Assembly (NCBI GenBank): GCA_039621445.1 | Contig: CP154954.1 | Span: 14,681,667 to 14,745,666, forward strand | Direction of reading: 5' to 3' | DNA: 64,000 nt | Origin: Euglena gracilis | Lineage: Eukaryota | Part shown: positions 17,901 through 61,700 of the stretch, piece by piece | How positions within the stretch are numbered: position 1 is the first letter of the stretch | How the letters are laid out: every line of letters starts with the position of its first letter | Position numbers and translations under genes: made by a program | The notes under the pieces: model-generated | What the model saw: the letters and a program-made list of their open reading frames with translations, nothing else | Database searches by the model: none | Told to the model about the DNA's origin: nothing

Positions 17901-19557
17901 TGGTTCAAACCCCCGGCAGGGGTGGAGGCAGGGGGGGGGTCCCTGGAATGGGTTGGAATGGGGGCACAGGTTTATGATGTGGCTGAAGACATCACAAAGT
18001 CAAGTAATTGAATTCATCGGATATTCAAAATATTGTGTGACAAAAAGAGTAAAAAGCATGGCACATTATGTGACAAAAAATCCCAGCCCTGGCGACGTAA
18101 AATGTATGACATTGTCACAAGTATCATTGTGTGGTTTTGAATCATAATTATTTTGTATTGGCACACCTCCTGAATGTCCGGCCAATTACGTGACGGCTGG
18201 CAAATTCGGAATGAACCATGGAGCTGTTAAGAGCCGTGTAAGGGACCATATTTGCACAGTGGCCTGGGGCTGCTGAAGCTCTTGCAATCCCATCACCGCC
18301 AGTTGGCCATCCAAGTCGGCATGTCCCGCTGCAAGGTTCTCCTGTAATGTAAAAGAGTGGTTATGAGTTTTTTTCTCGTTGTGTGTGTGTGTGTGTGTGT
18401 GTGCGTGTGCTTGAGTGCGTGTGTCTGTTTATAAGCGTAAATAATTTGTGCAGCCAAAGTCGGGGGACAGGGCGCTGTAAGTTGGGTAAGCTGTAGTTTT
18501 CTGCGTGTAATTTTAGACAGCAACATTTTATGTAAGCTATGTATGAATTGCACCGAATGTTTATTACCACATTGGTACCACATTGGGCAGATAATTGGAT
18601 AGGTTCCGATTTAGGGTTCCCCCATTGGCATTATTCCTTCCTAAATTCGCTAGATCTGAGATTGGGTGATTCTTGCCAACAATATCAGAACAATAAGAAT
18701 TCAGAACAATAATAAAAATTGGTGTGTGTGTGTATGTCAAAAGCAGGTTGATTTTCCAGTATGACCCTGTCCTTGCCTTGAGCATCCCACCCCCTCCAGC
18801 CCAACCAGCTCGGACAGCAGTGTTGGGACCCACGGTCCATTCGGCAGGAGCCCTCCACTCACCCCAGCGGTGGCCGCACCACACATGCCTCCACGGTGGT
18901 CGTGTGGCTCTATTGATTGCCACCTATTTCGCCTTATCTTGAAAACCACACAACTGCCAATACTGGAATTCTTGTCCAGCTGAAGAGTGAAGAGCTGGAG
19001 GGATTCTGAATTTGAGAAATAGAAAGGCAATGTAAAAATAACCGGTTTTCTCCTGTGCTTGCGAGAGTAAACCGTAAAGTGCTTGTTTTTAGAGGATTTG
19101 AATGATTTTTTTTCTCATCAGGTAATACGTGTGGCATAACAATTGGTTATTTACAACATTGCTTGTGGCCGTATATACAAATCGTTTGAAAAGTGAAAAT
19201 GCCAGAAAAGGAACGTTTTCAGTAAAGGGAAGCCTTGACAAGGCTGGTAATTGATCTTGCATTTGGGGGGGGGGGTTGCGATATTTTGCGAGACATTGCA
19301 CGGCCTTGCAATATTGGCGATATTTTCAATTGTCTTCTTTTCTTGCATACTGTCATGTTTGTTTTTTCATCCAAATTTATTTTTTGAATATTTTTTTCAG
19401 GCTCTCAATCAGGTGTTAGGCTTTGTCACGACGGTGCAATTGTGTGTGCCAAACAGATGCGATTGCCGAACTGTATGACACGCCACAGATAGCCCCGCTT
19501 CTAGAGGAGCCTCCCCATTTCACAGCAAAACCCTCCGACGAGGGCTGCCCCACTGAA

Positions 19558-19622
19558 TCACAAGACAACCAGGTACGCTTCTGTGACAATCATGTCCCAA
19601 ATCGTACAGTGTCCCCTGGGAA

Positions 19623-19684
<62 letters not shown>

Positions 19685-20778
19685 CGTGGGTTTCCCTTGC
19701 CTTTCCCTTTCCCCCTCCCCCCTCCCTTGGCCTCCTGTCCCCCGGTGGCTGCCCGTCTGTCTGGCGCGCTGGGCTGCCCCTTCCCTTTCCCCCTCCCCCC
19801 TCCCCTGGCCTCCGGTCCTCCGGTGGCTGCCCGTCTGTCTGGCGCGCTGGGCTGCCCCTTCCCCCTCCCCCCTCCCTTGCCTGCTGGTGGGTGTGTGACG
19901 GTCCCCGTGCGTGCGTGCGTGCTGGGGGGGCGGCGCTCCCCCCGTGGGCTCCGCACGCCTTTCACGCCACCCCTGGACCCCGCACCAGGGCCCGGGGGCC
20001 CGGGGATGCCACCGCCGGCAAGCCCCCCACCCCCCAGGGCCCCGTCGGCGTGGTACACCTCGTTCTGGTACCCGCATGACGGGCACGGATGGCAGTCTCC
20101 GTGCCCGGCACGCGGGTTTCGGGGATCTCCGCGGCCGCGTCGTTCTTGGGCTCCGTCGCCTCGTCCACGGCCTCGTCCTCCGCGTCCTCCGCGTCCTCCT
20201 CGTTTCTCTGGTGGCGGCTGCCTGCTCGCTTGGCGGCTTGGGGGTTCACACCCAATGGATCTCTTCCGCCCCCGGCGTTGTTGCTGTGGCTGCAGGGGGC
20301 CCAGGGGTTTTCGTCCCTTAGGTCCGGTCGTTACTGCTGCTGCTGGCGGGGGCGGATTCTGCCGCCATTGGTCGAGCTCTTGCTGCATTTCTTGCAGCGC
20401 TCGTTGGAGCCCTTGGAGGCGCTTTTGGAGGCGTTTTTGGCCGGTGCTTTTGCTGTTTGCCAGCCCTCTCCTTGGGGTTGGCCCTGCCGCTTCCTTGTGG
20501 GGTGACGTTTCCTTTGCCACCCTTGCCTCCTTTCCTGGGCTGTGTCTGTCCTTTTCCTGTTTTTTGTCCTCCTCGCTGGGCCCCCCCTTTTGGGTTGGGC
20601 TGTTGGTACCCTCTTTGGGGTGGTCCGGGGTTTTTTTCTTTCTCTCTCTCTCTCTCTCTCTCTCTTCCGCACCCAGCAGTAAAGGAGCCAGGCGGTTTCG
20701 GATCCAGCCGGGCCTTCCTTGTCGATGCCCCCGACGCCCGGCTGGTGGGGGCAGACCGCCTGGTGACGGGGCACTCAT
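19558..20778 (-). CDS. Putative ORF1-like protein (406 aa) of the hammerhead-bearing element: coiled-coil, RGG box, CxxCxxC
   Basis: True ATG at 20776-20778. Contains QKRLQKRLQGLQRALQEMQQELDQW, RGGRGGRGGRGRGRG and CHPCPSCG. The duplicate at 22123-23378 is frameshifted, and GC-rich DNA gives long ORFs by chance. Confidence 0.4.
20688..20763 (-). ncRNA. Type III hammerhead ribozyme, U3:A8 core variant (copy 1)
   Basis: Minus strand: CCAGGCGGU-C-UGCCCCC-accagccgggcguc-GGGGGCA-UCGACAA-GGA-aggcccggcugga-UCC-GAA-ACCGCCUGG. This gives stem III 9 bp, GUC cleavage triplet, stem I 7 bp, core, stem II and GAAA. Confidence 0.85.
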
Positions 20779-21579
20779 GCTCCGCGGGTGGGCGCGTCAT
20801 GGACCCCAAGGGTATGCGGACCCTCAGGGCCACCCACGGCTCCATCCAGGCAGGCGAGATATAGCCCCGTGGGCACCCACCTGGAGAGCGGCTCCGCGTG
20901 TTGCATGGCCCTCGGGTGCTGCCGTCACCCGAGGAACGGCCCAGGAACTCCGGTTGCCAGGAGCGGGGACCCCGGGGGCCACTCGCCCCCCTCCTTGGCG
21001 TGAAGGTGGTCACCACTCTGGGATACTCTGGTCCACGGCCGGCGCCGATTGGGGTCCTGGCACCCCGTCAGCCCGCCTCCTTCACCCAGAGATGGGCCAG
21101 CCTTCCCGGAGCTACAGCCCGCATAGAGCCACTTGCTTCGACCCCAAGCAAGGTGTGGGGAGCCCGACCTGCGACTCACCAGGAGGGTCACGGGCTTCAC
21201 CCACACGTGGCTCTTTCCTCTGTGCCGACTTGCACTGGAGGCTGTGCGGGCGGGACTTTGCGCTCGAGTCCTTGCAGGCCGAGAAGCACCACCTCGGTTG
21301 CTGCGTGGGGTGGCCTAGCTGATGTTTGTAAACCGCGTCAGCTGGCGGGAGCCCATATTCTTTTCGCCGTGGGCGGTGGCGGCGTCGGCTCACCCCGGAC
21401 TCCGAGCCCCTAGCCGTCTTGGGCTGTGTGGGGAAGCGCTTCAGTCCCATGCGCCTGGCCTCGAAGGGCTCGCAAGCGCTAGTTGCCCGGAAGGAAGGCC
21501 GGGACTTTTGTTCCACCCGTTGTGGGGTGGCCGCGGTTTCCCGCGTGTCTCTCTCTTTCCGCACACAGCGGTAAAAGAG

Positions 21580-21655
21580 CCAGGCGGTTTCGGATCCAGC
21601 CGGGCCTTCCTTGTCGATGCCCCCGACGCCCGGCTGGTGGGGGCAGACCGCCTGG
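21580..21655 (-). ncRNA. Type III hammerhead ribozyme (copy 2)
   Basis: Same 76-nt sequence, 892 nt from copy 1. Confidence 0.85.
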
Positions 21656-22225
21656 TGACGGGGCACTCATGCTCCGCGGGTGGGCGCGTCATGGACCCCA
21701 AAGGGTATGCCGACCCTCAGGGCCACCCACGGCTCCATCCAGGCAGGCGAGATATAGCCCCGTGGGCACCCACCTGGAGAGCGGCTCCGCGTGTTGCATG
21801 GCCCTCGGGTGCTGCCGTCACCCGAGGAACGGCCCAGGAACTCCGGTTGCCAGGAGCGGGGACCCCGGGGGCCACTCGCCCCACTCCTTGGCGTGAAGGT
21901 GGTCACCACTCTGGGATACTCTGGTCCACGGCCGGCGCCGATTGGGGTCCTGGCACCCCGTCAGTTTTTTCATCCAAATTTATTTTTTGAATATTTTTTT
22001 CAGGCTCTCAATCAGGTGTTAGGCTTTCTCACGACGGTGCAATTGTGTGTGCCAAACAGATGCGATTGCCGAACTGTATGACACGCCACAGATAGCCCCG
22101 CTTCTAGAGGAGCCTCCCCATTTCACAGCAAAACCCTCCGACGAGGGCTGCCCCACTGAATCACAAGACAACCAGGTACGCTTCTGTGACAATCATGTCC
22201 CAAATCGTACAGTGTCCCCTGGGAA

Positions 22226-22285
<60 letters not shown>

Positions 22286-23287
22286 CGTAGGTTTCCCTTG
22301 CCTTTCCCTTTCCCCCTCCCCCCTCCCTTGGCCTCCTGTCCCCCGGTGGCTGCCCGTCTGTCTGGCGCGCTGGGCTGCCCCTTCCCTTTCCCCCTCCCCC
22401 CTCCCTTGGCCTCCGGTCCTCCGGTGGCTGCCCGTCTGTCTGGCGCGCTGGGCTGCCCCTTCCCCCTCCCCCCTCCCTTGCCTGCTGGTGGGTGTGTGAC
22501 GGTCCCCGTGCGTGCGTGCGTGCTGGGGGGGCGGCGCTCCCCCCGTGGGCTCCGCACGCCTTTCACGCCACCCCCGGACCCCGCACCAGGGCCCGGGGGC
22601 CCGGGGATGCCACCGCCGGCAAGCCCCCCACCCCCCAGGGCCCCGTCGGCGTGGTACACCTCGTTCTGGTACCCGCATGACGGGCACGGATGGCAGTCTC
22701 CGTGCCCGGCACGCGGGTTTCGGGGATCTCCGCGGCCGCGTCGTTCTTGGGCTCCGTCGCCTCGTCCACGGCCTCGTCCTCCGCGTCCTCCGCGTCCTCC
22801 TCGTTTCTCTGGTGGCGGCTGCCTGCTCGCTTGGCGGCTTGGGGGTTCAAACCCAATGGATCTCTTCCGCCCCCGGCGTTGTTGCTGTGGCTGCAGGGGG
22901 GCCCAGGGGTTGTCGTCCCTTAGGTCCGGTCGTTACTGCTGCTGCTGCGGGGGCGGATTCTGCCGCCATTGGTCGAGCTCTTGCTGCATTTCTTGCAGCG
23001 CTCGTTGGAGCCCTTGGAGGCGCTTTTGGAGGCGTTTTTGGCCGGTGCTTTGTGCTGTTTGCCAGCCCTCTCCTTGGGGTTGGCCCTGCCTGCTTCCTTG
23101 TGGGGTGACGTTTCCTTTGCCACCCTTGCCTCCTTTCCTGGGCTGTGTCTGTCCTTTTCCTGTTTGTTGTCCTCCTCGCTGGGCCCCCCCTTTTGGGTTG
23201 GGCTGTTGGTACCCTCTTTGGGGTGGTCCGGGGTTTTTTGCTTTCTCTCTCTCTCTCTCTCTCTTTCCGCACACAGCAGTAAAGGAG

Positions 23288-23363
23288 CCAGGCGGTTTCG
23301 GATCCAGCCGGGCCTTCCTTGTCGATGCCCCCGACGCCCGGCTGGTGGGGGCAGACCGCCTGG
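23288..23363 (-). ncRNA. Type III hammerhead ribozyme (copy 3)
   Basis: Same 76-nt sequence. Confidence 0.85.
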
Positions 23364-24181
23364 TGACGGGGCACTCATGCTCCGCGGGTGGGCGCGTCAT
23401 GGACCCCAAAGGGTATGCCGACCCTCAGGGCCACCCACGGCTCCATCCAGGCAGGCGAGATATAGCCCCGTGGGCACCCACCTGGAGAGCGGCTCCGCGT
23501 GTTGCATGGCCCTCGGGTGCTGCCGTCACCCGAGGAACGGCCCAGGAACTCCGGTTGCCAGGAGCGGGGACCCCGGGGGCCACTCGCCCCACTCCTTGGC
23601 GTGAAGGTGGTCACCACTCTGGGATACTCTGGTCCACGGCCGGCGCCGATTGGGGTCCTGGCACCCCGTCAGCCCGCCTCCTTCACCCCGAGATGGGCCA
23701 GCCTTCCCGGAGCTACAGCCCGCATAGAGCCACTTGCTTCGACCCCAAGCAAGGTGTGGGGAGCCCGACCTGCGACTCACCAGGAGGGTCACGGGCTTCA
23801 CCCACACGTGGCTCTTTCCTCTGTGCCGACTTGCACTGGAGGCTGTGCGGGCGGGACTTTGCGCTCGAGTCCTTGCAGGCCGAGAAGCCCCACCTCGGTT
23901 GCTGCGTGGGGTGGCCTAGCTGATGTTTGTAAACCGCGTCAGCTGGCGGGAGCCCATATTCTTTTCGCCGTGGGCGGTGGCGGCGTCGGCTCACCCCAGA
24001 CCCCTAGCCCCTAGCCGTCTTGGGCTGTGTGGAGAAGCGCTTCAGTCCCATGCGCCTGGCCTCGGAAGGCTCGCAAGCGCTAGGTGCCCGGAAGGAAGGC
24101 CGGGACTTTTGTTCCACCCGTTGTGGGGTGGCCGCGGTTTCCCGCGTGTCTCTCTCTTTTCCGCACACAGCGGTAAAGGAG

Positions 24182-24257
24182 CCAGGCGGTTTCGGATCCA
24201 GCCGGGCCTTCCTTGTCGATGCCCCCGACGCCCGGCTGGTGGGGGCAGACCGCCTGG
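24182..24257 (-). ncRNA. Type III hammerhead ribozyme (copy 4)
   Basis: Same 76-nt sequence, 894 nt from copy 3. Confidence 0.85.
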
Positions 24258-24776
24258 TGACGGGGCACTCATGCTCTGCGGGTGGGCGCGTCATGGACCC
24301 CAAAGGGTATGCCGACCCTCAGGGCCACCCACGGCTCCATCCAGGCAGGCGAGATATAGCCCCGTGGGCACCCACCTGGAGAGCGGCTCCGCGTGTTGCA
24401 TGGCCCTCGGGTGCTGCCGTCACCCGAGGAACGGCCCAGGAACTCCGGTTGCCAGGAGCGGGGACCCCGGGGGCCACTCGCCCCACTCCTTGGCGTGAAG
24501 GTGGTCACCACTCTGGGATACTCTGGTCCACGGCCGGCGCCGATTGGGGTCCTGGCACCCCGTCAGCCCGCCTCCTTCACCCCGAGATGGGCCAGCCTTC
24601 CCGGAGCTACAGCCCGCATAGAGCCACTTGCTTCGACCCCAAGCAAGGTGTGGGGAGCCCGACCTGCGACTCACCAGGAGGGTCACGGGCTTCACCCACA
24701 CGTGGCTCTTTCCTCTGTGCCGACTTGCACTGGAGGCTGTGCGGGCGGGACTTTGCGCTCGAGTCCTTGCAGGCCG

Positions 24777-24900
<124 letters not shown>

Positions 24901-26595: not shown

Positions 26596-29500
26596 CTTCC
26601 AAGTTTTTAACATTTTACAAAATTTCCAAGAGAAAAGAATCTCAGTAAAGTTTTATTGTGCCAAAACTTGGTCCAATTTTCTTTGACCTTCGTTTTTTTT
26701 ACCCCCTCCTAAAAACTACCAATTTTTAGTCATCAAAATTTTGAGATTTTTTTTGTGCAAAAAATGTGGTTTTCCATCAAAAAAATTATGTATTTTGGGT
26801 TCATTTTTCAGAAAAAAGTTTTCAAGAATTTTCCCCGGCTAAAACCCCCGTTTTCCCAAAATTGGTGAAAATGCTGTTGTGGGTTGGTGGGCGGTCGACC
26901 CCCCCCCCACCTCCCGGGTGGGGGTGGTCGATCCCCCCGACCAGGCCTTCCTGTTCTGCCCTGCACCTGAGGAGGGCTGGCTGCTGGTTAGCTGGCTGGA
27001 CCCCCCCCCCCGAGAGCAAGGGCCTCTCCGGCTTAAGAAAACCCTTGCATATGGCACTGCTCGTATGGCGCTGCATTCGTTTTGTTTGACCAGTTGTAGT
27101 TGGTCCGTTTACAATTTCGGTGCCGTTCCACCCAGCAGGATGGACAGCGAAGCGGCTTGCTGCTGATAGCCAGACTCCCTATGCCATGCCTCTCGCGACT
27201 CTTTCCTTTGTTCATGACCCCTATTCTTTCGAGTGTCCTTGGTTTTATGCCAAGAAAACTCTCTAATTTCTTTACAGAGGAGTCTTGGAATCACGGTCCG
27301 CTCGTTGTTTTTCTGTTTTGCGCTTTTTTTTGTTTTTGTTTTTTTTTTTTTTTTTTTTTTGGTGGGTTATTTTTTGGATTTGGTTTTTTTTTGGATATTT
27401 CTTTTGGGTTTTTTTGTTGTTTTTTTTTTGTTCTTTTTTTTTTTTGGATTTGCCGTCTTCCAGCATCCCCCCCAACCAGCAGTTTCTTATTTTTGGCTTG
27501 CTGGACCCCCTGGGTCTGAAACAGCTGGAGAATTAGCGCCGGGTTCTGTAACGTCTTGGTGTATTTGACAAAACAATGAGAAATATGTTTGTAAAAGCGG
27601 TTTCATTGTGGCACACCCGTCCATGACCCCCACTCAAGAGAAGTTTGGCCAGCTCTTTTGCATTTCTAAGATTTTTTTTTACAGCCAGTTGCATGTTAGG
27701 GCATTTCTTCTGTATGCATATGTTGTAAATGTTATGCCGTTGTGTACGTCATTCCTTTGCAAGCTGTTTAGCATCTGCTCTTTGAAGTTTCCTTTATTTG
27801 GTCTCAAATAAAAATGAGTTTGAATTTAATGTCTTCAATGTATAATTTTTCGGTTCGCTAGGAGACCAATTTGCAAAAAAAATTTCATATTGATCCCAGG
27901 GACTGCGCCAACGGACCTCGTGCCATATGCTGACGACACATCCCAGCATCTTCCTCTCGGCCTGAGGATGGTACGCAAAGTAAAAACCCTTGTTTTGTCA
28001 GAAAGCTTTTGTCACCAAAGACATAACGTATCATTTAATAATACGTAATCAAAAGAGATTGGGCTATGGATAATTTGAGGTTGTACATATACACCTACAT
28101 ATACACCGGGGTCTGTCTCGGTCTTGGGTGACGCAACTCGCAGATAAGGAATTTCCTTTTGTCGGTTCGAATGCTCGCAACATTTTTTTCCACAAAAGTC
28201 GGACCCCGCATCTGGGAAAAGCTGAAAAACTGCTTGTTTCGCGCCTCACGAACCCGTAGCAATTGCAAAAATTGGCGCACTCACTAGCCTTAGTGGGGGG
28301 GGGGGGGGGGGGGCGTAAACCGAAAAACATTTTCCTTGTTCCTGTGGGTATTTTCGGAATCGCTGTGAAATGTTCTTTCTGTATTTGGGTCATTTGTGGG
28401 GTCAAAAAAAGCGGCAAAAAATTCTTGGCAGCCCCCTGGCACGTTGTCCTCTACGACCGGGTCGTCAGAGTTGGGGGGGCAGACATGCTTCTGGTCCATG
28501 GAAAACTAGCATCATCACAAATGTAATCACAAGAGCAACAAAGGCTGGTAATTTGGACACAGAGAATGTTTAATTGAAAGAACATCTGGCTTTCGTTGTT
28601 TTTTTGGAGAAACAAATCATCAACCATTGTGAATTATTACAAGCTGTTGCAAAATGAAGAAATTCCTGTCTCAGGCAGTGCATCCTGTTCGGTAGGTTAC
28701 GTCTTGTGACAGAAAGTTTGTCTCCGCTCCATGTGCAGTCTTATATGTTTTATTTCCTACCGCAAATTGTTTTCATGTTGGTTTACATAAACTGTGAAAA
28801 TGATGTAAAAACAGAAGTGTATTTTCATGCAACCGTTGTTTGTCGCACATTGCACACAAGGTTGCTGTGACATTTCATGAGGAGAACAAAAAAAAACAGG
28901 CAGGATATTTTCCACAGCTTTCAGCTGAAGGGATGTGTTGTGCGTTACACTGACTATGTGCACATTTGCGCACACCAACCATTTGTGTTTTTTGTGCAAA
29001 ATGTTCGGTGTGTGCATTGGCGCACATCGATCACCTGTGCATTTATGCCAAATGATATGTGTGTGCATTTGCACACATCGACAAATTTGTGTATTTTTTA
29101 CTTGCAAAATACACAAAATGGTCGATGTGCCCAATTTTGCACGCCAACCTTCAGTTCACAAGTAAGACCTGAAAATTTGACATACGCACATTTCGGTCCA
29201 TTAAAAGCGGATATGTATTTTTCATGCCACAACCATTAATGTATTCCAGCTGCACATCACGTCGTCCAACTCATGCGAACCCATCGGCATGAAACCTGTG
29301 TGCACCGCCTGGGCGGTGTGGCAGGGGTGTGGGGGGGTGTGGGGAGTGGTGTGGGGGGGGTTTGGGGGTGTGGGGGCTATTTGCTACCGGGGGCGCCAAT
29401 TTTTGCAGTACCTCCGTTTTGCATCACGGAGGTTTCTGATTGTCCTGCGAAATACGTGCGGAGCAGTTCATTCGTGTCCTTGTCTGTGAAACGGGCAGTT

Positions 29501-29862
29501 AGCACATACCGGCTGGTATCACCTTTGGGGTCCCCCCCACTCCCTTCCACTGACGCGCATGCGCCATTTCCCTCAAGGGTGATGGCAAAAATGGGTGAAA
29601 TTTTGTCGGAGTCCAGGGGAAGATGGGTGCTGCACCTTCCCCCCCCCCCCCCCCCGGACTCCCCCCCCCCGCTGGCCCTCACTCACCCCCTCTCCCTATT
29701 TTGAAAAAAATTCATTCTTCGATTTTTTTTCAAGAAAAACAGTCTTAAAGTATGAAAAATTTGGCTGGTTACCTGGCGCCTCCCCGGAGCGTGGGGAATG
29801 TTTGTTTGTGTGGGCTCCGGGCCTGCCATGCATTATCTTTTTTGGGGCTGTCACTCCCCTTC

Positions 29863-29964
29863 TTTGGCAGAATTTCTTGTTTTTTCGGCTTTTTTTTTTA
29901 TTTCTCGATTTTGTTCCATAAAAAAAAAAAAAAAAAAGCCGAAAAAACAAGAAATTCTGCCAAA
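29863..29964. repeat. Perfect ~37-bp inverted repeat
   Basis: TTTGGCAGAATTTCTTGTTTTTTCGGC-Tn (29863-29899) and An-GCCGAAAAAACAAGAAATTCTGCCAAA (29928-29964). Confidence 0.93.
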
Positions 29965-32900
29965 ATCCCCGGCATGCATGCAATTTGCTCGGATCTGTCG
30001 CAATCGAGCTCCCCATCGATCCAAATTCTCAAAGTTCTGGAATCGCTGGCGAAGAGATCAAATTCCATGCATGTTTTCCGTGCATGGAATTCCACGCATT
30101 CCATGCATTCCGTGCATGTGTTTGCGCACACCAACCAAAAGAAGTCTATGTGCGAGTTTCACCACCCAACCACCCAAGTCAGTAAAAATGTGTCGTCGTG
30201 GCATTTCAAGTCAGTTTGGCACCCACCCACCCACTGCTGGAAAGGGCTGTTAGGGGGGCCAATATGGCTTCAGCTTTTATATTCCAGTGATCGGCCATTC
30301 CCATGTTCTCCCTCAAATTCCCTTCCAGAAAGAATCACGGGGTTCCCACATCCCACTGAGGTGGTTCTATTTTCTGGTATTCAAATAATTCAGTAAATAA
30401 TACAAAGGAACAGAGAATCAAAGTCAGAAATGAGAAAGAGAATGGTGGGAGAAAAGAAAAGGCGATGGAAAATGAGAATGACTGGAAATAAGAAGCAACA
30501 TGCGTGAATCTGTGGCAGGAGGAACTAAAAAGAATGCGACAAAAATAGCCCACTCGGTGGCTATATATGGCTACCGAGAGTCAGGCGCCCACACCCAAGC
30601 TTCCATCAAAGGTCCCAGATGGTTCTGGGTGTGTTCCGTTGGAGCTGGCTGCTCCAGCATAGCGGGTGTGTGTTGCAAGTGTGTTACTGAGGCAGACAGA
30701 CCGGCAGGCAGACAGGCAGACAAAGAATGCGAGACACAAAGAATGAGAGGGAGGGGTATTGCCCCGGGCTTTTGGGAACCCCTGGAATCCAGCGGGTGAT
30801 GGAATGGGTGGTGGATGGGGTGGTCGACCTCCCCCCCCCCCCCACCAGCGAGCCTTCCCACATTACTGGTGGCGCCGATTTTTCGGTCAAATTTTTCTTT
30901 GTGGGCTTGGATGGGTGGCGGGTCGACCCTCTGGGGTCAACCCCCTATCAGGTCCCGCAAGGCCCTTTGGGGTCCCCTGTTGGAGGTGGAGTTTTGGCTA
31001 TTTTTGTTTTACCAAACAAAGGATGGACTTTTTCATACCCCAAAATTATCCCCAGAAATTGGGTCCCCAGACCTCTCCCCCCTGGGGGGGGAACCCCTGT
31101 ACCTGTCCCTGGCTGGGATACCGGTACCTCCCCCAGTCTTTAAAAGAAAAATTGATGCCTATACAAGGCAGAGAGGCAGACAGAGGCACAGATATTGGTT
31201 GTTATGTGCATTCATTTCAGTTTATGCTAATTTTGTTATCCTCTGACACAAATCAATCAACATCCCCGTACCTGGGGCATGTCATTTTGCAATTTCATTT
31301 TACAATGCTTGCCTGTTATGCGGTTCTGAGTTAGATGGTTCGTCCATTTTCCATCTGTGTCTGCTGCCTGTCAACGGCAAACTTTTTGTTTGCACCGTTG
31401 CTGCTGCGGAAGGTTATTTTTTTTCCATTCAGGCAACGCCGTGGAGTGCTGATGCGACTGCGTCCGAAGTCTGCTGGGTGAGAGGGAGGGAGGCAGGCCG
31501 CCCCAGGCAGGCCGCCCCATCCTGTGGCCATCAGTCCTTTTTCACAAACAGTCCAGACGCTGCAGAACGACCGGGGACACACAGCAATGTTCACTCATGT
31601 TTCCAAAGACGGGCCTTCCAGAAGAGGTGATGTCTGGATTGTGGCTTTTTTTTTATTTGAAATAAATCCAAGCGAAACCAGCGCCTATTTACACCATTTT
31701 TAGATTCATACCTCGCACGCAAAAGCACATTCATGGAACAAAGACAGAATCGATGTGCTGATTTTTAGTAAATGTTGAGTGTTGAAAGCCGGTCAAAAGT
31801 CTCCCCTGAAATAGCAAGTCCATTTTCAGTTTTCAATTTTCCAGAGGAGAGTTGAGAAGAATGGATAGCTCCGGTTTGCCACGATGTATTTGGTATATGT
31901 TCCAAGGATGAAGATAGGTGTAATGAACCTGATGGGTGCAATGGAGCAGGAGCACACCACGCTGCGGACCAGTTGCTTGGAGCCGTTTTGAACCCACCCC
32001 AAGTTATAGTAGAATCCCCTCCTCGTGATAACTGACCTTCAACCTACCCACCATTATCAGCCCACAAGACAAAGAGCCTGGCTTCTGGTTCTGTAACGTT
32101 TTATTCATATTTTTACATCAATCTCCCACATTCAATTTGGAGTGGTTGTTTCTTAGACATGAATGAGTTGCAAATAATTTTTTGCCTCCTTCTTCGAATT
32201 CTTCGAATACAAAAATTTTCAGCGGTGTGTGTCAGGGATTGGTGTTCATATTGAAACAGATAACTACGGATGATTCTGGCTGCTTTTTGGGCAATTTTAG
32301 CCTCCTTTGGCCCACTTTTTTTTTGTCACTTTTGGCGATTTCTGACTGTTTTTTGTTTTGAATTTTGTCATTTTTGGCTGTTTCTGGCCGATTCCAACCG
32401 TTTTGTGGCCATCTGCATATTTTTTTTCTTTCAATTTGCTTTAGCCTTTTGTGACTCTTTTTTTTTTTCAGGCGGCTTTGCTGCTTCTGGGCGTTCCTAG
32501 CTGCTTCTGGCCGACTTAGTCATTTTTCAGTGACATTTTCCTCGTTGTAGGCATTTCTGAGGCGATATGACGATCAATCTTTATGTTCTCATTGGTTGCA
32601 GCAATTTCTGGGTGGATGTCCTCAGCCAGTACAGGCATTGTCGCAATAACGGATAATTATGGACAATTATGGATCGCAACAAATGATGCCCCATGCTCTG
32701 ATTGTCATCCTAATTCACCACCTCTCAATAGCGATGCGAGGCTTGCAGCTGTCATTCAGTCTCCACTAAGACCCCGTGCCCTGGTTGCTATTGCCGTGCT
32801 CACGCCAGGTGTAAACACCCCATCCGCTGATGACCCATATCTCCCCACTTTGTTTGGGGTGCCTTTCGCATTCCAGGTCGGGCGTCACTTAAGCCGAAGG

Positions 32901-55683: not shown

Positions 55684-56439
55684 GTCGTGCCGCTCCATCG
55701 ATTGCCACCGACTCCGCCTTATCATGAAAAACACACAATTGCCAGAGTTGTTGTCCAGCAAAAGAAGAGGAAGGGATTATCAATGTTGAGAAATCGAAAG
55801 GACACACAAAATGACGTTTTTCCCTTGCTCTTCCGAGAGTATACCGTAATGTGTTTGGTCGGGTTTTTGAATATAAATTTTCTAAAATGACATGCGTGAT
55901 AAAACAATTGGGTATTTACAATATTGTTTGTGATAGCATATGCCAATAGTTGGAGAGAAAATGTTAGACAAGGACCAGTTTTTTTTGAAAATCTCTCAAT
56001 CAGGTCTTAGGCCTTGTTACGACAGTGTGTGTGCCAAACAGATGTGTGTGTATGCCAAATGTGTGTGCCAAACAATTGTGTGTGCCAAACAGATGCGATT
56101 GCCGAATTGCATGCCACGCCACAGATAGCCCCGCTTCTTGAGGAGCCCCCCCATTTCACAGCAGAACCCTCCGACGAGGGCTGCCCCACTGAATCGTGCG
56201 ACAACCAAGTTTGCTTCTACGACAATCACGTGGTGAATGGTGCAGTGTCCCCTGGGAGTGTCTCTCTCTCCCCCCCTCTCCTTTTTCCACAAAAAGTGAG
56301 GTTAAGCACAGGGAAGGTCCCTTGAGCTCGTCCCAGGAAGGCTCACAGGCTCTGGCTGTCTGGGTGCCCGTGGGACGAAGCCCCGGGACCTGTTCCACCC
56401 GTTGTGGGGTGGCCGCGGTTACCCACGTATCTCTCTCTT

Positions 56440-56720
<281 letters not shown>

Positions 56721-57243
56721 TCCTCTATCTCTGGATTTGGGCGCATTTTGGCGCCAGGCAGGTCTTGCCCGGGCTGCCAATTGAGTCTGGGGACCAACTG
56801 CCAAGTTTGCACGTTAACAGTAGCGGCAGGCCATGCACAAAACAGGCTAAAATCCTAAAAGCCTGAAGAGGGGGGGCAAGCAAATTTTCATTTAGTGCGC
56901 CGCGTAAAATTCTTTTTTTTCTGCTCCGCGTGCGCCGCGGCATTAGAAATTTTGTGACCGCGTGCGCCGCGGAAGGTTTCATTCTGTGCGCCGCATGTAC
57001 CGACGGCATAGCCATCCCAATTATCCCCTGCCCGTGCCATAACAAAAGAAGGCATGTGCCGCGGGAACGTCATTGGTGCGCCGTGGGTGTGTTGTTGGTG
57101 CGCCGCGGCAGCTTTTCAGGTGCGTCGCAGGTGTGCCGCGGCAAAAATTCAATTGTTTGCCGCTTGCGCCTCGGAAAGGTAAAGGTAAAAAAAGGTAAAG
57201 GGGATGCCCACCCCGTCCCGCACACAGCGGGCAGGTCCGAAGA

Positions 57244-57338
57244 CCTGGGCGGCTTCGGAACCAGCCGGGCCATCCTTCTCAATCCACCAAAGCCCGGCAG
57301 AACCAAGGCAGTCACCCAGTGGTGGGTGACTGCCTTGG
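57244..57338 (-). ncRNA. Diverged, probably inactive type III hammerhead (core UUGAGAA)
   Basis: GUC...CCACCA/UGGUGG stem I, UUGAGAA, GGA-uggcccggcuggu-UCC, GAAG. Loop I is interrupted by a 21-bp inverted duplication. Confidence 0.7.
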
Positions 57339-58399
57339 TTCTGGGCATGCTCTGTGGGTGGGCTAGTCATGGACCGAAAGGGATGGCGACCCCGGGCCAC
57401 CCACAGGTGAGTCACGTCCCCTTGGGCACCCTGGAGAGCAACTCCGCAGTCACATGGCCCTCGAGTGTGCCCCACACCCGCGGAATGGCCCGTGTGCTCC
57501 AGTTGCCAAGGGGCTTGGGGCCATGGTATGTCCCACTTCGCTTGCTGCTCTGCGGACAGGGTTGGTGGGGCACAGGCACCACGCTGCCTGCCGCCCGCCT
57601 GAACATGGTTCGGTCTTGTTCGGGGAGCGTGGCGTGAGTGGTTGAGGCCCTTGGGAGGGGGGGAGGCCCTTGGTGGTGGTGCCTGGAACCAGGGTTGTCA
57701 GCCATGACAGTCACTTTCGTGCCAGTCATGTGTGTGGCGCTCGAGAATCCGTGGGCATCATTAGGGCTTTCGCGCTTCTTGCCATTCTTGGTGATGCTTC
57801 GTTGCTAGGGGCCGGCTGATGCCCAGATTTTGTTGTGTAAGGTCTGGGTCCCATGACTCGCAGATGGCCCCCGTCCTCGTCCGGTTTTTTCATAGTCCGT
57901 CAAACCGCTCTCCACCCCTCTTTTGCTGCGCAGATTCACAGATCAGATCGATAACCCCGCCACGGTGTGCTTCTGATGCTTGGGGCGTCCCCCTCTTTTG
58001 GATGTTGCATGGAGACTCGCCCGGGCTCTCCGAGGTCGGGATTCTTACAGCATCACCCCCGGGTCAAGCCATTGCTGCTTACAGGTTGGGCACACCTCAC
58101 CTCTGGGGCGCCCCCCTCTCCATGCCCCGGCCAGTGGACGGATTAGGACACTCCCATTTGCGCCGCTTGCGATGGCGCACGTGTGACTCCCGGACGATGA
58201 TCACCGTGTCCAGGACTCGGGTATGGGAGGCGGCGGTGGGGCAAGGCGGCGGTGTCATCTCGACCAGCAGGTCGTCGATGCCACCAGGAAAGGGTGTCAG
58301 GTGGCTGAAGACAGTGAGGAAAGCTCCACGGGAGAGGTCATGGGGAGGGCTGTGGCCCATGGAGCTGGGGGCGTGCGTTTGGGGCCATTTCCTTGGAGA

Positions 58400-58735
58400 A
58401 CCAGCTGCGGAGCTCACGATCTCGGTGACGTTCCATCGCTAAAAGAGGAAGCGGCTCCACACGGACTGCACAAGGCGGCGTGAATACCCCCGCCGCCAGA
58501 TCGCATTACGGAGAACGTTGGCCACGGACTGCTTAAAATACCCCATGTGGCTGCAGGCCATCCGGGCGAACTCCAGGCGGCCCATGATGACCCCGCCCAG
58601 CTGCTCGGTGGGAGCTGCTCGGCGTCGGTGGCCAGGGGGCAGCGGACGATGTGGTCGGGGTACTCCTCCTCGCGGTTGTGGATAGTGGTGTGCACCACCC
58701 GCTCCCCTTTTGTATGGCATTGTATATACATCCTT
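58400..58735 (-). pseudogene. Penelope-like reverse transcriptase, C-terminal (thumb) fragment
   Basis: TTIHNREEEYPDHIVRCP / APTEQLGGVIMGRLEFARMACSHMGYFKQSVANVLRNAIWRRGYSRRLV, matching the PLE pattern T.xYxK...F.IV..P.....P....GV....L.R....C.....F.......L...RGY. One frameshift; catalytic core deleted. Confidence 0.75.
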
Positions 58736-61700
58736 CAGTCTTCAGTGATGTGGGCTGCTGCCTTTCGATGATGCTGCTCTTGCCGCGGTGGTGCTTGTTG
58801 CGGGTGGGGCTGGGGTGCCGATGGCCAGCACAGTACAGTGTGCCAGATAGTGCCTCTCTGGCCAGGTGCTGTCCATCGTGCCATTTTGATGCAGACTCGC
58901 TGCCCCCAACTGCAGCCGTGCCCTCTGGGCCTGGTGGTGCTGATTACTGCTTTGATTAGGCATTGGACTGGCATGGGAAACTGTGCGCGCCCATGCCAGT
59001 CCCTGCGTTCCCCTGAGCGAGGCGGCCACTGCCCCAGTGTCCAGCCCCGGAAGTGGGCGTTGGTGGCTGCACACTCTCTCTTTTGTCATGAAGGTGGTCA
59101 CGCCTTTGGCATGTTTTTGTCCATGGCCGCCATCGCCGCTGCTGGGGTCTTGGTTCGCCCATCAGCCCGACCACCTTCACCCAAAATGTTGCAAAGGGTC
59201 ACTTGCAAGGCAATTTATGGGGAGCTTTGAACTCACCAGGGAGGTAAGAGGCTTCACCCCATGACCCTCTCCCTCTCTCCCTTCCTCTCTTTTTTTCAAT
59301 TCCTGTGAGCTCGTTTTGGACAGTCTGTACCACGCAGAATATATATACCCTCACTAAATGATTTATCCCACAATGATTGTGTCTCTTATTCGAAAAATTC
59401 CCTCCCTCTCTCTCTCTCTCTCTATGTGTGTGCGTGCTCGCATAAATATTCATATATTTTCATTGGAAATTCAAAGGTGTTCTTAGGCAGCCCTAAATTA
59501 AAGGTTTTTTTTCCTTGCTGCCCCACAACCATTGTTTGCTCTTTGTGTCATTTTGTTCAATATCTTTATATTTTCAACGATGGGTGGAAAAACCACACTG
59601 AGATGGGTGTGTTTGGTTTTTCATAGTTTCGATTCTATCGCGTGTTCCGTTGACAGAGGTATATTCAACACTTGCGCCTCATCCCCCCCCCCCAGGTCTC
59701 CCCCATGTCGTTCAACCCACCCCTGGTCGTTGATTGCAAAACATTGGTCATATGAAGGGGTGGCTGTTGTTACCGGCGGTGGGAAGGACTTGAGCTGCTG
59801 TCACTGTCCATTTTGTTGCAAGGTTGGCAAGACAAATTTAGCATTTGGGGCATGTATTTTGCCTGCGGTTGTCAGTCATAGCTTCAGGATTTACGGACCT
59901 TCCCCTGGGGTCCTCTGGACAACTGGGAAATGAGGTGCTGGTTTGTTCCCCTGGAGGGGGAAATTCAATGGGGTCCAGCCCCAGCAACTGGTACCCCAAA
60001 AGCAGCCCAAATACAACTGGGTTGGCATTTTTTTTCACTAAAATTTGCAGCCGAAAACCCCAAACCCGCAAAAAAAATGCCATTTTGGGATTTTGTGGGC
60101 TATTTTTCACCCTTTTTTCAAAAATGTTGGTACGCCTGGCTTCACTGGGTGGTCGGTGGCCCCCTGTGGGGTCCACAGCCCACCTGGGAGGGCTGGCTGC
60201 TGGATGGCTGGCTGGACCCCCCCGAGGGCAGGGCCCATCCGGCTTAAGAAAATCCTTGCATACACTACTCCAGTGGCATTGTTCGTTCATTCGTTTTGTT
60301 TGAGCAGTTGTAGTTGGTCCGTTTGCAAGTTTGGTGCCATTCCACTCAGCAGGACGGACAGTGAAGCGGCTTGCCAGTGATAGCCAGTCTCCGCTTTCTA
60401 CCCATGCCCTTGGTGCACATGCCACGCCTCTACCAATTGCAAGCCATTCCTTCGTTCATGATCCCTATTCTTTCAAAGGTCCCTGGTTTAATGCGAAGAG
60501 AATCCTTCGTTTTCTTTTCAGAGGAGTCTTGGCAAACCAGACAAAAGAATGTGAACCATGTTTGTAAAGCGGTTTTATTGTCACCCACCCACCCACCAGC
60601 CCAACGCACAGGAAAAAGTTCTTTTTTTCATTTCTTAAGTTTTTTGTGTGCACCATTCCTCTGCAAGCGGTTAGCGACTTTTTTTAGTTTTGTTTTGTTT
60701 TTTTTTCTCAAAAATGAATTTGAAATCATTGTGTTCAATGTGTTTTTTCAGGTTCGCTTGGAAAATTATTTTGCAAAATTTTTATCACATTGAATCCAGG
60801 GACTGCGCCAATGGACCCCGTGCCATATGCTGACACCTCCCAGCATCTTCCTCCCAGCCTGAGAATGGAACGCGAAGTCAAAACTCTTTGTTATCAGAAA
60901 GTTTTGTCACCAAAGATATTGCCTGAGCTAATTGATTGAGACATAATCAAAAAAGGATTGGACCATGGACTATTTCCCCCCAAATTTGAGGTTGTACACC
61001 TTACATTAACAGCTTTGGAGCAGCATTTCTGCCTCATTGTGCAACTTGTGTAACACCCCCAAAAAAGCACCAGGAAAATTCAGTGGGAATGTGCCCTGTG
61101 TCCACAAGCCCCCCCATGGATGAGTAATTCGTTTTTGGCCCAAACCCTTTGGGGGGTCAGCAAAAAACAACAACGTTGAAATGACCCGGGAAAATTTTGG
61201 TGTTTTTTTGATTGTGATCAATTTGGATTTAGAGTATTTAGGTCCAGAGTGACCAACCCCCCGGGCCTGGGGGGATTATTGACTGGTTTCTTTTTTTAAA
61301 AAAGATGCCCGACTCGTCGTGGAAAGAGTCGAAGTAACAATGCCAGGGCCTTTCTTAGGTGACGTAACTTGCATTTAAGGAATTTGCCGGTGTGTGCGAA
61401 TTCTCACAACGTTTTTCAAAAATCAACCACTGCATCTGGGGAAACAAATATCTGCTTGTTTCACGCCTCTCGATACTGATAATGTATATTGCAAAAATTG
61501 GTGCCCCCACTCAGAGGTGGGGGTGGGGGGTGGGGGGGGGGGGGGTGAATCCAATAATAATTTCCTTGTTTCTGTGTGCATTTTTCGCTGTGAAATGTGC
61601 TTTCTATATCGGGGAACTGTTTGGGTAAAAAAAAACGGGAAAAATTCTTTGCACAAAAGGGTCTGAAAGTGGCATTTTGAGTTTTATTTGAGGGGTCGGG

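Follow-up and report, generated by a model that had tools for sequence, protein, structure and literature searches.

A hammerhead-like nested RNA hairpin in an abundant retroposon-like repeat of Euglena gracilis

Introduction

Does a tandem repeat of Euglena gracilis carry an unusual self-cleaving hammerhead ribozyme, or a structured RNA that resembles one? The question is raised by a 76-nt motif on the minus strand of contig CP154954.1 (assembly GCA_039621445.1), within a stretch of 64,000 nucleotides at positions 14,681,667 to 14,745,666 (hereafter the window, in whose own numbering all coordinates are given). A sequence-only reading had drawn the motif as a type III hammerhead with a U3-A8 core pair and a long helix between loops I and II.

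We find that the motif forms a nested RNA hairpin that is conserved and strand-specific, within a retroposon-like repeat of very high abundance. It is best explained as a structured element of the RNA, located in the 5' module of this non-coding, A-tailed repeat. Descent from a hammerhead, or function as one, is plausible because the hammerhead architecture is near-complete and its setting is tandem, high-copy and non-coding. Judged from its letters, it is quite possible, though short of probable, that the motif is an active variant type III, retrozyme-like hammerhead that alternates with a rod-shaped hairpin.

Four identical copies fit a type III hammerhead

An exact search of the window finds the 76-nt string four times without a mismatch, where 100 shuffles give an expectation of zero. 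The copies and their predicted cuts, derived from hammerhead numbering, are:

20688-20763, minus strand: motif copy 1, predicted cut between 20754 and 20753
21580-21655, minus strand: motif copy 2, identical, predicted cut between 21646 and 21645
23288-23363, minus strand: motif copy 3, identical, predicted cut between 23354 and 23353
24182-24257, minus strand: motif copy 4, identical, predicted cut between 24248 and 24247

Within copy 1, the parts of the hammerhead drawing are:

20763-20755, minus strand: stem III 5' strand, CCAGGCGGU
20754, minus strand: C17 (the C at position 17)
20753-20747, minus strand: stem I 5' strand, UGCCCCC
20746-20733, minus strand: loop I, 14 nt, including the 10-mer CCAGCCGGGC
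20732-20726, minus strand: stem I 3' strand, GGGGGCA
20725-20719, minus strand: core strand UCGACAA
20718-20716, minus strand: stem II 5' strand, GGA
20715-20703, minus strand: loop II, 13 nt, including the 10-mer GCCCGGCUGG
20702-20700, minus strand: stem II 3' strand, UCC
20699-20697, minus strand: GAA
20696-20688, minus strand: stem III 3' strand, ACCGCCUGG

Read 5' to 3', the RNA runs through the stem III 5' strand, GUC, the stem I hairpin, UCGACAA, the stem II hairpin, GAAA and the stem III 3' strand. A custom descriptor of this type III topology is matched in 4/4 copies, with stems I, II and III of 7, 3 and 9 bp, and by nothing else on either strand of the whole window. The loop I 10-mer is the exact reverse complement of the loop II 10-mer; this can be read directly from the letters, and the 10 nt form a 10-bp helix in the computed fold. 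Thus, the sequence-only account of the main copies, with four identical type III-like motifs and exact loop I-loop II complementarity, is correct. The cut that it placed between 20754 and 20753 on the minus strand is consistent with the hammerhead numbering of copy 1.

The core strand does not match the canonical C3 U4 G5 A6 N7 G8 A9 and reads U C G A C A A instead. G5, A6 and A9 are present, the 3:8 pair is U3-A8, and position 4 is C. The four main copies also have G12 A13 A14, the A15.1-U16.1 pair, a non-G at 17 and a stem II that begins with G-C. Among 11 conserved core positions, U4 is the sole deviation.

Individually, these departures have precedents. The sequence-only reading held that U3-A8 is tolerated in place of C3-G8, and this is documented as natural covariation (PMC3088659, section 8; PMC4209133), the latter source reporting ~1,300 matches in Schistosoma Penelope-like elements (PLEs). 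According to the relevant sections of PMC3088659, changes at U4 cut in vitro activity strongly, and a viroid variant with U4C remains infectious despite a large drop in its in vitro activity (citing its ref. 30). The same sections state that ~40% of hammerheads have Watson-Crick loop-loop pseudoknots, the tested ones being 4-6 bp, and that stem II can be as short as 1-2 bp. U3-A8, U4C and a loop-loop pseudoknot thus each have precedent, and their combination would be a new variant. A partial literature search found no report of U3-A8 and C4 in one natural core, and supplements could hold cases, possibly in the core-variant figures S4-S7 of PMC3088659 or the additional files of PMC4918200.

The hammerhead fit is very unlikely to arise by chance in a single window. 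A relaxed descriptor (3:8 either C:G or U:A, any base at 4, stems of at least 5/3/5) has no match in 60 dinucleotide-shuffled windows and 60 unit-composition shuffle sets. A generous descriptor, which allows one deviation anywhere in nine core positions with the same stem minima, has five matches in shuffles of window composition (21.5 Mb) and none in those of unit composition (21.1 Mb). Across these ~42 Mb, no shuffle match reached both a stem I of at least 7 bp and a stem III of at least 9 bp, and analytically the combined features would be expected at an order of 1e-10 per position. The hammerhead drawing is therefore both right and statistically unusual. By our own extrapolation, a scan of many windows might yield a few such coincidences, and statistics alone are not decisive.

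Folding favours a nested rod

Several lines of evidence, set out in this and the next two sections, weigh against an active ribozyme. It is weakened by the failure of Rfam models, by C4, by a 13 kcal/mol energy deficit and, above all, by the loss of stem I and of A15.1-U16.1 in a diverged copy.

The minimum-energy fold of the motif is a rod, not a three-way junction. The outer part of the rod is stem III; beyond a 9x7 internal loop follow the 10-bp helix between the loop 10-mers and, at the apex, a 5-bp hairpin (29-33/39-43) that pairs core U3-C7 and so sequesters the core. What the sequence-only reading had taken for a long kissing helix is, in this fold, an ordinary nested helix of the rod. 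The rod folds at -43.0 kcal/mol versus -29.9 kcal/mol for the hammerhead secondary structure, whose ensemble probability is essentially zero. A growing transcript of 38 nt is most stable as the stem I hairpin (-14.6 kcal/mol); from nt 60 on, ahead of stem III transcription, the rod is favoured.

A pseudoknotted hammerhead could rival the rod in stability, given steric feasibility, because the 10-bp duplex is topologically compatible, as a kissing helix, with stems I and II and is worth -22.5 kcal/mol alone. A full 10-bp loop-loop helix with 3-4 linker nt would be sterically strained, and partial pairing seems more realistic given just 4 and 3 linker nt.

The energetic preference for the rod supports a purely structural explanation, in which the rod is the functional form of the RNA, for example in reverse transcriptase recognition, packaging or stability of the repeat RNA, and the hammerhead drawing is a coincidence among unpaired and apical nucleotides. 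We regard this as possible, if on balance doubtful. It would have to account for a joint set of features improbable by chance, with no shuffle match of equal quality: a placed 7-bp stem I, G5, A6 and A9, a pairable 3:8, G12-A13-A14, A15.1-U16.1, a non-G17 and a stem II that starts with G-C. It would also have to account for the arrangement of one motif per tandem unit, which is typical of eukaryotic repeat hammerheads as described in PMC4918200 and PMC7761336.

The two strands fold about equally well. Their 92-nt folds have -44.1 and -50.8 kcal/mol, and both strands of the 892-nt monomer fold ~3 standard deviations better than shuffles (z about -3 each); the monomer fold pairs its two ends by stem III. 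This near-equality would suit a DNA-level palindrome with no RNA role, either a by-product of repeat evolution or a protein-binding DNA site, as would the possible derivation of RNA-library contigs from DNA. We consider such a palindrome very improbable, given the strand asymmetry of the diverged copy described below.

The core and proportions of the motif are also atypical. The near-invariant U4 is replaced by C4 in all four copies, stem II has just 3 bp, and the loops are long (13 nt on II, 14 nt on I). A typical type III hammerhead, as outlined in PMC7936874, has 6 bp in helix I and 4 bp in helix II, closed by loops of 6-8 and 4 nt respectively; the 7/3-bp stems and 14/13-nt loops depart from this. 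Rfam lists no hammerhead family at the gathering score, and its hammerhead models find no match at E<=10 in the 5-kb stretch searched, at E<=5 in the whole window, or even at E<=10 in 101 nt only. Canonical searches thus overlook the motif, as the sequence-only reading had expected. The lack of an Rfam match and the non-canonical C4 also favour the structural explanation.

A diverged copy retains the rod and loses stem I

The comparative evidence consists of one diverged relative:

57245-57319, minus strand: diverged homologue of the 76-nt motif, placed by homology alignment, 50/76 positions identical

In this copy the rod retains 22 of its 24 pairs, with four double-sided changes. When 26 changes are placed randomly, a mean of 14.5 pairs is kept, and at least 22 are kept at P=0.00011 (200,000 trials). 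Stem III keeps 8/9 pairs with three double-sided changes, one of which turns A15.1-U16.1 into G-C; the 10-bp helix keeps 9/10; and the rod-specific apical hairpin keeps 5/5, with one double-sided and two wobble changes. The homologous stem I retains 2/7 pairs (four unpaired, one gap), and stem II is unchanged at 3/3. The diverged RNA's own fold is a still more complete rod (-34.8 kcal/mol, z -3.0), and the copy matches neither the relaxed nor the generous hammerhead descriptor. The motif is no better conserved than its upstream flank (50/76 versus 135/197 identical).

The covariation that the sequence-only reading had claimed for stem I, from 57244-57338, does not survive homology alignment, given the 2/7 stem I pairs set against 22/24 for the rod. 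We rejected CCACCA/UGGUGG as a diverged stem I: CCACCA (57320-57325) lies 5' of the stem III homologue and is non-homologous, and this fold also would leave extra unpaired junction bases in a copy that fails both descriptors. Of the further claim that this copy keeps UUGAGAA and both loop sequences, the core strand UUGAGAA and the loop II 10-mer are indeed there, and the loop I 10-mer is matched at 8/10 positions. GAAG stands in place of GAAA.

57299-57342, minus strand: perfect 20-bp hairpin in the diverged copy, formed by inverted duplication, fold z -6.15

In this second hairpin, an inserted segment is base-paired with the counterparts of the stem III and stem I 5' strands.

Retention of the rod again speaks for the structural explanation, since 22/24 pairs with four double-sided changes survive 34% divergence (P about 1e-4), the rod is the minimum-energy fold of both main and diverged copies, and stem I and A15.1-U16.1 are lost. 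Set against this, stem III, a helix common to both models, accounts for three of the four compensated pairs.

The diverged copy also bears on which strand is constrained. Five G-U wobbles are new in it (6-71, 19-60, 29-43, 31-41 and 32-40); these would be tolerated on minus-strand RNA only, as the plus strand would have A-C or C-A mismatches. A covariance model built on the two helices common to both folds, run over the window with filters off, scores the diverged copy at 92.8 bits on the minus strand versus 16.5 bits on the plus strand. The minus-only wobbles and this difference in score argue for RNA-level constraint on the minus strand and against a DNA palindrome. In the window, the model found only the four main copies and the diverged one, all other hits having E > 0.2.

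The diverged copy has U4, at a place where the main copy has a CpG (TCG to TTG). Because this U replaces the C of a CpG, it probably reflects decay rather than an ancestral canonical U4. C4 is then probably ancestral to both lineages, which suggests that the element amplified with C4. These observations bear on another explanation, that the motif is vestigial: an ancestor of the retrozyme kind would have carried a true type III hammerhead, the present motif, with C4 and the strong rod, would have lost useful cleavage, and the family would now amplify without it. The near-complete architecture except U4, the strong loss of in vitro activity on U4 changes reported in PMC3088659, the 13 kcal/mol advantage of the rod over the hammerhead secondary structure, and a diverged lineage without stem I and the 15.1-16.1 identity all favour this view. 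The probable ancestry of C4 counts against it, as does a family that looks young and homogeneous (1,187/2,979 DNA contigs at least 99% alike) with its other hammerhead features intact, which would not be required of a relic free from selection. We consider a vestigial hammerhead improbable.

Public runs show a very abundant family

Evidence from public runs consists of assembled contigs, which do not reveal the start, end, strand or level of an RNA. The unit is present in 20 public runs, RNA libraries among them. The stretch draws alignments from 2,979 contigs of one DNA run, and 1,187 of these are alike at 99% or more. In a metatranscriptome run from leaf litter, the unit occurs as a 922-nt closed cycle, equal to the unit length plus k-1. 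This cycle fits tandem DNA and a circle equally, and contigs from RNA libraries may stem from DNA.

The 922-nt cyclic contig (run X16) is linearised with its first letter at 20752, which lies 1 nt away from 20753, where the 5' end of the product is predicted. We did not count this cut point as evidence of cleavage, as it is arbitrary or may reflect a variant 31 nt away. Among the DNA contigs listed, none has a well-supported loose end at 20753/20754.

Within the main family, no variant with a share of at least 5% falls in 20678-20772 to inform on covariation. Such a gap in the motif is unremarkable given 26 variant places in 878 nt (~0.1 by our own arithmetic). Searches with a 22-base motif pattern and a 26-base flank pattern found no motif relatives in JGI metagenome contigs, and none were found in IMG/VR viral contigs or GTDB genome contigs.

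The motif lies in a tandem, non-coding, A-tailed element

The repeat that carries the motif consists of units and a second module, X, with diverged pieces elsewhere in the window:

20663-21555, minus strand: full unit, 893 bp, no credible coding capacity
21557-21964, minus strand: partial unit, covering unit positions 3-409, with 98.5% identity to the full one
23265-24156, minus strand: second full unit, 98.5% identical
24159-24780, minus strand: partial unit, covering positions 3-623, with a long (CT)n tract at its end
19361-20662, minus strand: module X, purine-rich, no protein relatives, with an A-rich tail at ~19361-19400
21964-23264, minus strand: second copy of module X, in a 2603-bp tandem duplication
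55982-56280, minus strand: module X, 3' terminal part, diverged homologue with 80-87% identity
56383-56437, minus strand: copy of a ~55-nt box, homologous to 21501-21555, 89% identical

The motif occurs once per 892-894-nt unit, a layout that the sequence-only reading had passed over, and the predicted cuts are spaced by 892 and 894 nt. The predicted monomer RNA between two cut sites would span 20754-21645, or 892 nt. GC is ~66% in the units (2-kb bins) and 38-56% in the rest of the window. On the minus strand, the 1.3-kb module X lies downstream of the unit array and is joined to it via (GA)n, seen as (CT)n at 20626-20675. A head-to-tail duplication of 2603 bp (19361-21963 and 21964-~24566, 99-100% identical) takes in module X and 1.46 units. 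The upstream array of the second block runs further, to unit position 623, and is ended by a ~110-bp (CT)n tract (24781-24890). Block 1 consists of 409 + 484 + 409 bp, the 409 boundary being just the junction of the duplication; the purine-rich GGGTGAAGGAGGCGGG precedes unit position 409.

Module X and the unit form one composite element, because the diverged locus (55982-59183) has the same order as the main locus: X tail, ~55-nt box, unit pieces. The ~55-nt box at 21501-21555 follows the unit end on the minus strand and holds a CCACCC/GGGTGG hairpin; its copy at 56383-56437 adjoins a (GATA)n tract, and a weaker form starts module X (20590-20625). Contigs of three RNA-labelled runs join 21512/21514 onward to unrelated sequence, so the box seems common to several repeat families.

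Protein searches returned little. The 412-aa minus-strand frame of module X matches no Pfam family above threshold, and none of the 8,000 candidates scored (226-721 aa) proved to be a relative. Pfam also finds no family in the 143 open reading frames (ORFs) of at least 110 aa in the window outside the repeat. One ORF, among the 150 longest of the 236 that have 75-109 aa, matches RT_RNaseH_2 (a Ty3/gypsy-type RNase H) with E 9.2e-07; this fragment is the sole protein-family signal found in the 64 kb.

Other observations concern the window at large. CpG observed/expected is ~0.65 throughout. A long near-perfect palindrome at 29860-29966, probably a foldback hairpin or one like a miniature inverted-repeat transposable element (MITE), draws many unrelated microRNA precursor models on both strands, far below thresholds. 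At 26877-26973, ARAGORN calls a transfer RNA (tRNA)-Gly(CCC)-like sequence that is unusually long (97 nt), and Rfam lists no tRNA there at the gathering score. Positions 7-255 are a run of 249 N, an assembly gap.

Comparison with known hammerhead systems

The closest parallels are the plant retrozymes with long terminal repeats (LTRs). In the main account of these (PMC4918200, Cervera et al. 2016), type III hammerheads lie in direct repeats (300-400 bp) on either side of a non-coding centre of 300-600 bp; plant retrozyme repeats span 400-1000 bp, circular RNAs have 600-1000 nt, and the hammerhead is in a 'blocked conformation' in minimum-energy folds. The Euglena element shares the type III topology, the non-coding sequence, GC >50% and two to four tandem hammerheads, and its 892-894-nt cut spacing is similar. 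It also has the hammerhead blocked in a long arm of the minimum-energy fold and monomer ends joined by stem III.

However, plant LTR retrozymes have a tRNA-Met primer binding site right behind the 5' repeat, and the unit end has none nearby, so the LTR-retrozyme signature is missing. With a 12-nt motif, we found none at <=2 mismatches in the element; the best match in 19361-24780 has 3/12 mismatches and lies elsewhere, others having 3-4 mismatches. In further contrast to plant LTR retrozymes, the direct-repeat boundary here is set by local duplication only, and the composite element ends in an A-rich tail in the style of a non-LTR retroposon. Its core has U3, C4 and A8, its 14/13-nt loops have 10-nt complementarity, and the Rfam model fails. 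Plant LTR retrozymes are also marked by a polypurine tract ahead of the 3' repeat and by 4-bp target site duplications; here, no target site duplication can be defined at the element ends, which microsatellites and the duplication obscure.

PLE hammerheads share the U3-A8 covariation and a location in repetitive retroelement DNA (as described in PMC4209133, with scattered examples in PMC3088659). In the description of PMC4209133, the PLE U3-A8 motifs are minimal type I with a weak stem III and act as dimers, whereas the Euglena motif is type III, with a 9-bp stem III, long loops and the extra C4. No Penelope-like reverse transcriptase was found in the window by Pfam (143 ORFs of at least 110 aa, and the longest 150 of 236 ORFs of 75-109 aa).

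Loop I-loop II complementarity recalls pseudoknotted type III hammerheads, for which accounts exist in Perreault et al. (2011) and, from toad and termite hepatitis delta virus (HDV)-like RNAs and dipteran genomes, in PMC7936874. By direct reading, GCCG/CGGC in the loops here fits the GCCR/YGGC pairing consensus given there, which is a weak resemblance. The pseudoknots these sources describe have 4-6 bp, against 10 contiguous complementary nt here that are also nested in a competing rod, with stems of 7/3 bp. The viroid U4C hammerhead (ref. 30 in PMC3088659) shows that C4 can occur in a natural, viable hammerhead. As presented in that review, it is a minority variant of a canonical ribozyme, whereas C4 is found here in 4/4 copies, together with U3-A8.

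One hammerhead per tandem unit is the usual setting in eukaryotic repeats, in the accounts of PMC4918200 and PMC7761336. In this respect the Euglena repeat is like the metazoan non-LTR retrozymes and satellites outlined in PMC7229834, PMC7761336 and bioRxiv 10.64898/2026.07.22.740005, with one-motif tandem units that are non-coding, high-copy and similar to short interspersed elements (SINEs). Metazoan non-LTR retrozymes, as characterised there, are type I with ~150-400-bp units and GC <50%; the Euglena repeat, type III with 892-894-nt units, thus falls outside this class.

A two-state model and its implications

If the motif is an active hammerhead, we infer a sequence of events that includes cleavage, a pseudoknotted active fold, circularisation and retrotransposition. 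The two alternative folds would have stem III and the 10-bp helix in common. During minus-strand transcription, the GC-rich stem I hairpin would form first. Loop I-loop II complementarity, in part or in full, would then align stems I and II side by side, much as the Watson-Crick pseudoknots of other hammerheads do. After closure of stem III, the core (U3-C4-G5-A6-C7-A8-A9 with G12-A13-A14) would cut after C17. Tandem transcripts would thereby be resolved into ~892-nt monomers with 5'-OH and 2',3'-cyclic phosphate ends, kept together by stem III. The RNA would finally relax to the stabler, blocked rod with its core paired, and a host ligase might circularise the monomer.

Such a scheme would entail three novelties: an undescribed U3-C4...A8 core, a 10-nt complementarity that serves as a two-state switch, and a new type III, A-tailed eukaryotic retrozyme. 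In the switch, the pseudoknot state would clamp stems I and II for co-transcriptional cleavage, and the nested state would provide a ligation-friendly rod. The new kind of retrozyme would combine type III ribozymes, 0.9-kb GC-rich units and an A-tailed body in non-LTR style. We judge these novelties rather unlikely.

Either outcome would be informative. If the motif does not cleave, it would be a clean case of a conserved GC-rich nested hairpin that mimics a ribozyme, and it would show that a single diverged copy needs homology alignment before covariation is claimed. If it does cleave, the tolerated hammerhead core would widen to C4 with U3-A8, and searches with covariance models and canonical descriptors would be overlooking a very abundant ribozyme family. 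Cleavage would also connect an A-tailed body of the retroposon kind to a retrozyme architecture of plant type (type III, ~0.9 kb).

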